35,575 nucleotides of DNA from a virus (lineage: Duplodnaviria; Heunggongvirae; Uroviricota; Caudoviricetes), in the IMG/VR virus record IMGVR_UViG_2579779007_000007; one strand, 5' to 3'. This document shows, in pieces, positions 25,659 to 29,854 of the stretch. The translations under genes were made by a program, and so were the position numbers. The notes under the pieces were generated by a model. The model made no database searches and was not told where the DNA came from. It saw only the letters and a program-made list of their open reading frames with translations. The first letter of the stretch is position 1. Each line of letters begins with the position of its first letter.

Positions 25659-26078
25659 ATGCTAAAAACTAGGCTTATCACCGATTACATCAATTCTTTA
25701 ATAGGTCAGGAGTTCGTTCAGGGTGAGAATGATTGCAATCTCATTGCATGTAAGATCATCGATATTCTCGCTGGTACTGACCTATATAATTCTCTTTATA
25801 AAAAATATTCAACTAAAGAAGAAGGCTTGAAAATCTGCAAAGAATTAAGCGGGTATTCAAATATCCTTCAACCAATTAAGAAACATTTCAAATTAGTCAC
25901 TGATGATTTACAGGACGGCGACTTACTGGTCACAGCCCACAAATTAGGAAACCGTAATTATTATTCCGTAGTTCCTCATTATTCCGGTTATGGCCTCGTT
26001 GAAGAAGATGGTATCTGGATGACCATTCCTGTTTCAGACATTGACTATGAACAAGTTTATAGATTCGGGGGTGAATAA
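25659..26078 (+). CDS. tail assembly protein with NlpC/P60-like Cys-His motif (gpK-like)
   Basis: Start at the ATG preceded by GGAGG. Motifs QGENDCNLIAC and VVPHYSGYG. Stop overlaps the next start. Confidence 0.5.
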   Translation: MLKTRLITDYINSLIGQEFVQGENDCNLIACKIIDILAGTDLYNSLYKKYSTKEEGLKICKELSGYSNILQPIKKHFKLVTDDLQDGDLLVTAHKLGNRNYYSVVPHYSGYGLVEEDGIWMTIPVSDIDYEQVYRFGGE

Positions 26079-29000
26079 TGGGATTTGAAATATTAGTAGG
26101 CGCGGTTATTGCTGGTGCGTCTGCTGGGATGGCTGCTGCTGCAACATTTTCTGTTATGACCGCAGTCGCTATCGGTATGGCTGCTGGTGCAATGACCTTG
26201 ATCGCTTCCACTGTAGGCGCACCAAAAACACCGAAAGTACAAAGCCCAGATAATGCGGTGACACTAGGAACATCAAACGATCCGAAGACAGTATTACCCG
26301 TTCTTTTCGGTACTACCCGCACGGGTGCAATCTGCGTTTACAAGGCAATTTCTAAGCAAGAAAACAATAAGTTAGTGCAAATCTTCGCTATTGCCGAGGG
26401 TGAAATCGACCATTACAAAGCACTCTTTATTGATAATAAAAATGTTCTTGTTGGTAAGAACATGACGATCCGTGATGGTATTCTCGATAAGGGCAACATT
26501 AAAGAAGAATATCGTAAAGTATTAGAAGTCGAGTTCCGCACGGGCAAGAATCCTAACACCGCTTTGTCGCTGGCAAAACGTCACTTAGGGTCAGACTGGA
26601 ACGACAACTACAAAGGCAATGGTATTGCAACCATGTGTATTGTGTTACGTCGTGATGACAAATCTCTTGCTGCTGGTGTTGATATTCTCCAGCCTAATAG
26701 CCAGGTGGCAGTAGACGTTTGCGGGTTAAAGATTCGTAACCTTGAAACCAATGCTATTGAGGCTAGCACTAACGGCGTGGACCAGATTTTCCATTATCTG
26801 ACAAATACAAAATATGGTCTTAGTGTACCAATTGAAAACATCAACGTTGATTCATTCCTGAAAGTACGTAAACAAGTACGCCAGATGGACCTACATTCAA
26901 ACGGTGCATGTGATCCGAACGCCAGCTTTAAAGAGAACTTGACCAGTCTTATGCAGACTTTCGGCGGGGTGATGTTCGAATCCTTCGGAAGAATTACCCT
27001 GAAACTGGATGCTCCTGATATTGTTAAGCATACCTTCAATGAAGACAATATTATGATGGGTAAGGTATCACTGAAAACAGGTGGCACTAACGGTTATTTC
27101 AATACCATTAACGCGATGTATCAAGAACCATCAATCGACTATTCAGAGCAAATGCTACGTTATCCGGCTGATGCTGAAAACGATGCTACTATTCGTCAAG
27201 ATGGTCGAATTATCGCTAAAGATATTGAATATCGTTTTGTTAAGTCTAAAGCCCAGATTGATAAACTTGCGAGTATTGAACGAAATAAATCTCGTATCAC
27301 TCAGGTTATCAGCTTTATGACTACTGACGCATTCACTGCCGAAGTTTGGGATGTTATCAGCGTAACCTATGATGAATTGAAACTGAATAATTCCTTATGG
27401 CGTATTACTGCAATTGATCGCTCGATTGATTCTGGTATTGCTGGGATGATGACTATCACCGCTACAGAATATAATTCTCAGGTTTATACTGACCTGAACT
27501 ATGCGGCTAACCCAGATAACCGACCAAGTGGTTTACCGGATTCAATGACAGTACAGAAGCCTACTAATTTCAGAATTAAGGCAACTGGCGAGACGATTTA
27601 CGGTAAAAACGTTACTTTGACATGGGATGCGCCGGAAGATTTTAACCGTTATGGTTTTCAGATTGATTACCGTGTAAGCGGATCACCTAACTGGATTAAG
27701 CTGGGACAGACTTCACAGCAAATTTTCAGTGTCAATGCACTGGCAAAAGATCGTTCTTATGATTACCGAGTTTGTGCTTTCGGTATCATCGCTCGATCCG
27801 ATTGGGTAGAACTGGTTAACCAGAATCCGACTGTTACCTATGAATTGCCGACTCCGGTTATTCGAATCAAAAATCAGGGTAGCACGCCTGGTACTTTCGA
27901 AGGCAATGATCTGATTATCGAATGGGAAAATCAGCAACAATTAGATGTTGAGATCAACGGTGAAACTAACAAGTTTAGTGACCTGTTTGAAGCATACATT
28001 ATCAAGGTGACTAACAAGGCTGGTAAGTCTATTCAGTACCGTACCCGCGATCCTGAATCATGGACTTATACGCTTGATATGAACCAGTTTAACGGCCTTT
28101 CGCGTCAACTGACGGTAGAAGTATCAGCTAAGGGCTATAACAACTCAGAGAGCGCCCCAGCGCGTTTAGTGGCTATCAACCCACAACATAAGCCAATGAA
28201 AGGTTTTAGTGCGCGTGGTGGCTTTAATACTGCGTTTGTTAGCTGGGCGGATGACGTAGAACATGACTATGCAGGGTCAATCATCCAGTATGCAACCGAC
28301 AACACTTTCTCAGATGCAAGGGCAGTAAGTACGAATAGTGTTAGCCATACTTCCTTTGATATTGCTGACGGTGATTATTATATCCGTGGTGCTCACTACG
28401 ATATTTTCGGTATGGATGATGCTGTTTGGTCTGAACCGTATTTCATGCAAATGAAATCTACCATTAGCTGGGACGATCAGGACAAAGAAGCACTGGAAGA
28501 TCTGATCGGTTTACAAGATCGCTTAGATGAAACTATCGCGGATGCTATTAAGCAAGCTGGCGCTAATGCCGATGCTAAAATTGATGCAATGCATAAGCAA
28601 ATCACTACCGAGACGGGTAAAACTGTTCAAGCCTCAGCCGATACCTTAAAGAGTCTGATTGCTTCTGGTGATAAGGCAAGTTCAACTAAGATTGATCAGG
28701 TTAAAGCTGAACTGAAAGGCGATATCACCAAAGAAGTTAGCGCCTCCGCTACAACCCTGAAACAAGCTATTGCTACCAGTGAAGCAGCAAGCGCAAGTAA
28801 GATTGACCAAGTTCGGGTAGAAATGGATGGCAAGATTGCTGGTGTGAATCAGGAAGCGGACGTTAAGATCGATGCTTTGAAAGGAACCATTAACAGCAAA
28901 TACAATCTAGCGGTTAATGCAGATGGTCGCGTGGCTGGTATTCACATGAGCGCAACTAACGATCCGGCACAACCGACTAAAATCATCTTTACGGCTGATA

Positions 29001-29854
29001 AAATTGCTGTAGCTCCGCAGAACGGGACCGATGTTTGCCCGTTTGGTATCGAAGGTAACAAGGTTTATCTCGATAATGCGATGATTCGTAATGCTGCAAT
29101 TGGCACAGCCCAGATTAATGATGCGGCAATTACTACCGCTAAGATCGGCAATGCTGCAATTAACAGCGCGAAGATTCAGGACGGGGCGATCACCAATGCG
29201 AAGATCGTAAACGGTGCTATTGATAACGCCAAAATTGGTAACTATATCCAGTCTTCCAACTGGAACGGATCAACCGGATGGCATATCAACAAGAACGGGT
29301 CCGCTACGTTCATGAACGCTACCGTTAAAGGTAATATCACGGCTGATTCTGGTACTCTGAACAACGTCACGATTAACTCTAGCTGTGTTATTAAGGGTAT
29401 GCTTGAAGCTACTCAGGTTAAGGGTGATTTCGTTAAGGTGATTGGTCGTAAGTTCCCACACCGTGATGTTAACGTTGATAATGGTTATGGCGGCTATCCG
29501 CAAGGTACAGTAACCGTTCGCGTTGAAGATGATCACAAGTTCGATCGTCAAATCGTTATTCCGGCGATTAGTTTTGGTGGATTGCGAGCGCGTGAAGGGT
29601 CGAACAATAATACCTATTACGACACCTGTCGCCTGATTGTTCGTAAGAATGGGTCAGAGTTGTATAATAGGGCGTATGGCGGTAATACTGGTCTTTACTC
29701 AGGTGTTATTGATATGCCAGCGGGTAAAGGTGCTGTGACCTTGACCTTTGAAGTGCAATCAAGCGCAATCAACAACTGGACGCCTAGCACATGGATCAGT
29801 GATTTAACTGTAATGGTAACTAAAAAAGCCACTACGGGTATTACTGTTTCTTAA
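26078..29854 (+). CDS. central tail fibre / host specificity protein: gpI C-domain-like N-terminus fused to gpJ-like body
   Basis: 1258 aa. N-terminal Gly/Ala-rich hydrophobic segment plus [10 protein letters not shown] resembles the lambda gpI C-terminal half. FN3-like repeats. C-terminal [13 protein letters not shown]...[15 protein letters not shown]...[14 protein letters not shown] resembles the lambda J receptor-binding domain. Confidence 0.85.
   Translation: [1258 protein letters not shown]

Follow-up and report, generated by a model that had tools for sequence, protein, structure and literature searches.

Phage lambda encodes two parts of its tail tip, gpI and gpJ, as separate proteins; can both reside in one chain? 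The question is raised by IMG/VR virus record IMGVR_UViG_2579779007_000007, a stretch of 35,575 nucleotides (the window), in which an open reading frame (ORF) of 1258 amino acids (aa) runs from an ATG without interruption over 26078..29854 (+). A sequence-only reading of this DNA had proposed that the ORF joins the C-terminal half of gpI directly to a gpJ-like central fibre with a lambda-J-like receptor-binding domain. We consider it very probable that the encoded protein (the tip protein) is the tail-tip protein of a siphovirus-type prophage and carries in a single chain a gpI-C-like gate and membrane-insertion module, a hub of the pb3/gpJ type, an FN3-like and shaft region and a lambda-J-type receptor-binding domain. 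The single-chain arrangement is real and informative on the evolution of the lambda parts, yet common among phages, and the tip protein is a new member of an already known, widespread kind of tail tip.

An uninterrupted tip gene in an Escherichia coli prophage

The whole window is 100% identical to the chromosome of Escherichia coli strain CE0007a and is an E. coli prophage; RefSeq labels the tip ORF in this strain "phage tail tip domain-containing protein". Among 5426 complete E. coli genomes the region occurs in 57, with ≥80% coverage in 54, and the same unbroken tip ORF is present in 54 of the 57 matching genomes at 80–100% DNA identity, the architecture being kept in homologues only 45–52% identical. 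A megablast search of the region against phage records gave no match, and the element is known only as a prophage. The start ATG of the tip gene overlaps the stop codon of the upstream DUF6950 gene (TAATG) and is preceded by a Shine-Dalgarno-like run (GGGGGTG); the only tandem repeat in the DNA of the gene is a trivial 22-bp array.

A gpI-like module at the N-terminus

Structures of the lambda tail have given gpI a role beyond assembly: the protein is the plug of the tail tip and probably a membrane-inserting element. Residues 101-223 of gpI comprise the helices H1/H2, the plug (159-175) and strands which thread the gpJ hub domains, the gpI trimer holds the C-terminus of gpH and is itself released when LamB binds, and it has been proposed that H1/H2 then pass into the outer membrane (PMC11101478, PMC10721106, PMC12617516).

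BLASTP aligned tip residues 3-106 with gpI 103-222 at 29% identity (E 4e-5). A profile of the family N-terminus, built from five sequences (members 45–83% identical to the tip protein), scored gpI at 26.8 bits, where 2000 shuffles of gpI 100-223 gave 11.4 at most, and among all sequences in the PDB gpI was its best match (E 2.2e-5). Its second match there was T5 pb3 262-311 (E 5.6e-4), immediately past the plug of pb3, which has its hairpin tip at residues 233-236 (PMC10038345). The signal comes from the non-hydrophobic part: tip residues 48-97 scored 29.3 bits with gpI 151-223 (shuffle maximum 10.9), and by sequence they are homologous to gpI ~155-212, the strand part also to pb3 from residue 262. 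This stretch contains the motif APKTPKVQ at residues 48-55 and a further motif, quoted in the sequence-only reading, at 72-83; the family shows no variation at residues P52, D58, L63-G64-T65, P74, G78, R81 and G83.

Ahead of it lies the hydrophobic, Gly/Ala-rich segment of residues 1-47, in the place of gpI helices H1/H2 and of the iris/penetration domain of RcGTA. Kyte-Doolittle hydropathy over 19 residues exceeds 1.6 only within residues 1-48 and elsewhere in the chain never rises above 0.93. What the segment shares with gpI is its composition and position and no specific sequence, so the proposed likeness of the N-terminus to the C-terminal half of gpI stands for residues 48-97, and for residues 1-47 in composition only. 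Since residues 48-97 are homologous and the only hydrophobic segment is placed before them, the module probably acts in the manner of gpI within one chain.

Scanning the first 140 aa against Pfam at E≤10 returned nothing relevant, and because PF06805 (Lambda_tail_I) models only the N-domain of gpI (residues 14-97), a missing Pfam match is uninformative on the gpI C-half. That ubiquitin-like N-domain had no Pfam match in the tip protein, and a profile of it found nothing in the six frames of the window or in related long proteins; nor is there a separate gpI-like gene anywhere in the window.

The module continues into a J-like hub

A hub profile, taken from a 53-sequence alignment cut to the first 500 residues of the tip protein, matched both lambda proteins in order: profile positions 11-90 match gpI 123-214 (22.7 bits), positions 88-120 weakly match gpJ 21-57, and positions 206-407 match gpJ 267-485 (66 bits, E 1.6e-22). 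In a separate comparison J 1-80 scored 14.3 bits with tip columns 96-135, a value reached by none of 1623 scored shuffles (maximum 5.3), and the weak match to the J N-terminus, over ~40 residues after the gpI-like part, is therefore genuine. As the three matches are colinear, the chain order is gpI-C, J N-terminus, J hub, with the seam near residue 97. Formal alignment thus detects similarity to lambda I and J alike, and the proposal that a C-terminal part of gpI is joined directly to a J-like hub and fibre is borne out by a single profile. The depth of the alignment mattered, a five-sequence profile of residues 1-480 being not significant against lambda J. Pfam Phage-tail_3 (PF13550) falls below its cut-off at tip residues 285-447 (E 7e-4, 19.9 vs 23 bits), the FNIII-A_GpJ, Ig_J and Ig_J_second models have no match in the tip protein, and the full-length NCBIfam model lambda_TipJ (NF049904) matches the C-terminus only (205 bits, cut-off 1950).

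An AlphaFold model of residues 1-500 had a predicted local distance difference test score (pLDDT) of 76.8 and a predicted template modelling score of 0.77, with residues ~65-470 confident; in it strands 75-91 reach a pLDDT of ~89 and the gpI-like strands pack confidently on the body. Foldseek matched the model to DT57C/T5 pb3 (8hqz_A; E 1.6e-27, template modelling (TM) score 0.67, root-mean-square deviation 3.8 Å), the pb3-type 7zhj_b (E 4.3e-27), lambda gpJ (E 1.8e-18, TM 0.53), the phage Chi tip (E 1.2e-17, TM 0.55), RcGTA 6tba_8A (E 5.7e-17, TM 0.54) and R4C 8gtc_M (E 6e-6). In the predicted structure the tip body has the siphophage hub fold, and its core is nearer to T5 pb3 than to lambda J.

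Fibre and receptor-binding domain

FN3 repeats had also been proposed for the body of the protein. In the tip protein itself the Pfam fn3 match, at residues 507-570, stays below the cut-off (E 2.3e-4, 21.7 vs 25 bits); the corresponding position of homologues gives significant matches (P0144, E 2.6e-9; P0140, E 1e-7). Family phrog_5616 spans tip residues 273-595 (E 3.6e-42) and phrog_2148 spans residues 887-1258 (E 1.7e-82), while PF09327 (Phage_Tail_Tip) matches residues 931-1028 (E 6e-20, 71.9 bits vs cut-off 22). Short A-x-I-x-x-A-K-I-like repeats occur at ~1003-1056 (29084..29245, +), between the Phage_Tail_Tip and receptor-binding domains; the repeat stretch is absent from lambda J, where the BLASTP alignment to J 872-943 leaves a gap of ~60 residues opposite.

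The lambda-J-like C-terminal domain was found as predicted: PF12421 (Ig_GpJ_C) matches residues 1124-1258 (E 7.6e-34, 117 bits vs cut-off 26.2), and in the PDB the domain matches lambda J 8iyk over tip residues 1067-1257 (E 1.3e-34) and 9wca "A8 gpJ 713" at 48% identity over 195 columns (E 6.6e-54). Its identity to lambda is 40% (tblastn), and no phage record exceeds 53%. In the A8 chimera, lambda gpJ carries the C-terminus of a natural E. coli prophage, and the receptor used is OmpC instead of LamB (PMC11338833). The porin receptor that had been predicted from likeness to the LamB-binding domain of lambda J is plausible on sequence grounds, but the nearest characterised domain is that of A8 and binds OmpC; our guess is that OmpC is the likelier of the two. 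Engineered delivery particles make use of the lambda-J family, to which the receptor-binding domain belongs as a divergent member that could add a new specificity.

Table 1. Segments of the tip gene and the tail genes upstream of it (positions in the window).
Feature	Position	Strand	Basis or remark
Tape measure protein, 810 aa	21915..24347	+	phrog_13674 "tail length tape measure protein", E 4.1e-64
Distal tail protein	24399..24959	+	phrog_1302, E 1.5e-16; start codon after RefSeq
Hub protein, 217 aa	24959..25612	+	PF09931, E 8.7e-6, 26.4 vs cut-off 26 bits
DUF6950 protein, 139 aa	25659..26078	+	PF22262, E 3.3e-12; translationally coupled to the tip gene
Hydrophobic Gly/Ala-rich segment, tip residues 1-47	26078..26218	+	Hydropathy; two transmembrane-like stretches
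gpI-like plug motif and beta-strand motif, tip residues 48-97	26219..26368	+	Homology to gpI, pb3
Baseplate-hub body, pb3/gpJ type, tip residues 98-475	26369..27502	+	Opens with a J-N-terminus-like segment
FN3-like repeat region, tip residues ~490-790	27545..28447	+	About three repeats by eye
Fibre shaft, tip residues ~795-1066	28460..29275	+	Helical repeats, Phage_Tail_Tip (931-1028), A-x-I-x-x-A-K-I repeats
Lambda-J-type receptor-binding domain, tip residues 1067-1258 and stop codon	29276..29854	+

The single-chain layout is common

The N-terminal profile matched 401 clusters (50% identity) at E≤1e-3 among 1.84 billion representatives, and these are mostly tip proteins of 700–2300 aa with the module at the N-terminus. 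Among the top 150 matches, 94 are ≥600 aa long and 87 of the 94 have the module within their first 60 residues; a single one resembles a free-standing protein of the gpI type, and the short matches mostly stop in the middle of the motif, as fragments at contig ends would. The long matches bear Phage-tail_3, fn3 and Phage_Tail_Tip domains. Two of them, P0267 and P0241, carry the module followed by FNIII-A_GpJ and Phage-tail_3 and are bridging proteins, in which the module stands on true J bodies; both are matched strongly by the N-terminal and the gpI profiles, P0267 scoring 6.4e-9 with the latter. The same N-terminus is found in the cultured phages PSTCR4 (Providencia), Lebethron (Pseudomonas) and DCP80, at 24–158 bits.

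The layout being this common, "fused" describes the arrangement and not necessarily its history, and the separate gpI of lambda may be a derived, split state. Our literature search found, among the papers it covered, no report of an explicit gpI-J fusion, and as no Pfam model covers the N-terminal module, such N-termini stay unannotated.

The DCP80 record (PQ671644.1, an Escherichia phage of 141 kb classed in Straboviridae/Tevenvirinae) has its tip protein, 42% identical, at 3917..7675, beside genes for a PF09931 hub and a T4-like endonuclease VII; the record could be a chimeric assembly or a misclassification.

Alternative explanations

Several observations weigh against a gpI+gpJ-type tip in one chain. 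Tip residues 1-47 scored -3.2 bits with gpI 100-155, and 944 of 3000 shuffles scored as high; residues 1-61 have a pLDDT below 50 in the AlphaFold model, so that their position in the lumen is inferred; a narrow profile of lambda-family gpI C-halves gave the tip protein just 6.5 bits (E 0.14); the N-terminal profile found no RcGTA or R4C megatron sequence in the PDB at E≤10, so that the iris domain is tied to the module by position and function and not by demonstrated homology; and identities of 40–48% do not allow a receptor identity to be transferred. The first and third of these, together with the low pairwise identity to gpI, would suit a convergent or compositional likeness, in which the N-terminus is merely a hydrophobic anchor or signal-like segment on a J-like protein. 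We regard this as very unlikely: the score that singles out gpI comes from the non-hydrophobic residues and far exceeds the shuffles, gpI is the best match in the whole PDB, the motifs common to both are invariant in the family, and the match runs on colinearly into the J N-terminus and body, with bridging proteins that both profiles recognise. The narrow gpI profile, too, reaches 13 related long or N-terminally matching proteins at E≤1e-3, all of them colinear. Still less credible is that the single ORF is an artefact or recent accident, a frameshift or deletion having joined I-like and J-like genes into a product that is non-functional or peculiar to one prophage. Beyond the fact that lambda encodes the two parts separately we found no support for it, and conservation of the continuous ORF across distant relatives (the 54 E. 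coli genomes, the 45–52% identical homologues, PSTCR4, Lebethron and DCP80) effectively refutes it; the module stands at the extreme N-terminus of nearly all the long matches, the window holds no remnant of the gpI N-domain, and the start codon has its own Shine-Dalgarno-like run and overlaps the upstream stop.

The third possibility, that the tip protein is a megatron-type baseplate protein of the RcGTA/R4C lineage which gained a lambda-like fibre tip and does not derive from gpI+gpJ, deserves more weight than these two and is nevertheless improbable. The gene order, in which a distal tail protein, a PF09931 hub, a small peptidase-like protein and a long tip protein with a hydrophobic N-terminus follow one another, is that of RcGTA and R4C, and Foldseek matches the megatrons of both. 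T5 pb3 and lambda J are better structural matches than either, the N-terminal profile finds gpI and pb3 in place of a megatron, and the hub partner, with only two cysteines, lacks the iron-sulfur site of RcGTA and R4C. The question is largely one of naming, as all such proteins have the same hub fold. A chain uniting gpI-C-like, hub, fibre and J-type receptor-binding parts thus remains our preferred explanation.

Comparison with lambda, T5 and RcGTA

With lambda gpI and gpJ taken together the tip protein has in common the plug and strand motifs, the J N-terminus, the hub body, Phage_Tail_Tip and the PF12421 domain, and, with gpI, a hydrophobic helix pair ahead of the plug. Unlike lambda it is one chain and not two, without the ubiquitin-like gpI N-domain (PF06805) and without a detectable FNIII-A_GpJ; its hub core is distant from J in sequence, it has extra fibre repeats, and its receptor-binding domain is only 40% identical. 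The gene order is not the M-L-K-I-J of lambda: where lambda has L and K, the neighbours are of the phiJL001/RcGTA type, a PF09931 hub and DUF6950. Among solved and characterised proteins the A8 gpJ chimera (9wca) comes nearest to the receptor-binding domain; the rest of the chimera is lambda J, and at 48% identity specificity may differ.

T5/DT57C pb3, the best structural match, likewise has plug and hub in the same chain, the post-plug motif in common and FN3 after the hub. Unlike the tip protein, pb3 includes hub domain I, carries its plug as an internal insertion that lacks long hydrophobic helices, and stops after two FN3 domains, T5 deriving its fibre and receptor binding from the separate pb4 and pb5; in our prophage hub domain I is in a separate gene, whereas fibre and receptor-binding domain lie within the tip chain. 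RcGTA g15 and the R4C megatron resemble the tip protein in gene order (distal tail protein, hub, g14 peptidase, megatron), in a hydrophobic N-terminal segment, their iris/penetration domain, within the same chain (PMC7296036, PMC10276861) and in a related hub fold. Tail fibres are separate from the megatron, which binds them and lacks a central fibre and a receptor-binding domain of the lambda type, and the hub partner of the tip protein is without the four cysteines of their iron-sulfur site.

A possible mechanism and history

Each step of the following mechanism is modelled on the structures of lambda and T5, in the latter of which the plug changes its fold and becomes anchored in the outer membrane (PMC10038345). 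Three copies of the tip protein would form a closed cone where the tail ends, with each N-terminus folded back into the lumen. Strands 72-95 would dock on the hub domains of their own chain, a contact that gpI makes with gpJ in trans; residues ~48-60 would block the channel and keep hold of the tape measure protein by its C-terminus, and the hydrophobic residues 1-47 would stay buried. Binding of the C-terminal domain to an outer-membrane porin, for which OmpC is the best guess, would bend the fibre and rotate the hub domains, releasing the plug; the hydrophobic helices could then drop into the outer membrane, and the tape measure protein, followed by the DNA, would exit.

Lambda I and J together equal the tip chain cut just after the gpI-like strands. 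We propose, tentatively and as a history that may well prove wrong, that lambda gpI and gpJ were split from an ancestral single-chain tip, that gpI later gained its ubiquitin-like N-domain, and that the helices-plus-plug module is a widespread, unmodelled channel gate and outer-membrane conduit in hundreds of siphophage lineages. If this is true, single-chain tips offer a simpler system than lambda for asking whether the helices form a pore in the outer membrane. The tip chain is a natural intermediate, and gives sequence-level support to the idea of Xiao et al.

Neighbouring tail genes

The gene order distal tail protein, hub, DUF6950 and tip (Table 1) is the same in PSTCR4 and Lebethron. The hub protein also matches phrog_2048 "tail protein" (E 3.8e-27) and is elsewhere annotated as a DUF2163/baseplate hub domain protein; its N-terminal attachment domain is of the phiJL001-Gp84/RcGTA type, and in function the protein corresponds to lambda gpL. 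Its translation contains two cysteines, and it therefore cannot form the four-Cys iron-sulfur cluster present in lambda gpL and the RcGTA and R4C hub proteins (PMC7296036, PMC10721106).

The DUF6950 gene occupies the place of lambda K and of the RcGTA g14 peptidase. It had been taken for a K-like gene that keeps just the NlpC/P60-like domain, a claim which the comparisons do not establish: against lambda K its product gave nothing by BLASTP and an hhalign E-value of only 0.14, confined to the Cys motif, it had no match to PF00877 (NlpC/P60) at E≤10, and sequence comparison with the PDB gave nothing. No JAB domain was found, the NCBIfam scan yielded no family for the upstream genes, and a literature search on DUF6950 returned no papers. 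In the DUF6950 family Cys26 (in GENDCN) is invariant and His94 (after GDLLV) nearly so; lambda K itself shows a faint DUF6950 match at its catalytic Cys motif (E 0.067). The one link to NlpC/P60 lies in the PSTCR4 homologue, which matches DUF6950 at E 5e-36 and NLPC_P60 below threshold (E 0.0053). A single-sequence AlphaFold model of the protein reached a pLDDT of 38. The DUF6950 protein may be an NlpC/P60-like enzyme, the link being remote.

Other genes of the prophage

Upstream of the tape measure gene, fibre and adhesin genes are interleaved with tube-like genes. A side tail fibre of 1202 aa (16365..19973, +) matches at its C-terminus the T-even "long tail fiber distal subunit" (phrog_1699, E 1e-126), and a Gp38-type adhesin lies at 20675..21181 (+; phrog_1121, E 2.9e-35). 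Such a T4 gp37/gp38-like pair is unusually placed for a siphovirus-type prophage and implies two receptor-recognition systems. The fibre gene sits between two ORFs that both match the major tail protein family phrog_158: 15449..16282 (+, 277 aa, E 5.5e-8) and 20030..20500 (+, 156 aa, E 2.3e-21).

The major capsid protein, 670 aa (12535..14547, +), has further matches to the families "major head and protease protein" and head maturation protease, which suggests a protease-capsid fusion. Downstream of the tail genes, 31507..31860 (+) encodes a small endolysin of 117 aa in the D-Ala-D-Ala carboxypeptidase family (phrog_894, E 1.7e-45), and a large serine recombinase gene lies near the prophage end (32395..34089, -). 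In CE0007a the prophage borders on a truncated hicB antitoxin gene (L002 31316..31432, beyond the end of the window) beside ydcR, which suggests that it integrated into hicB.

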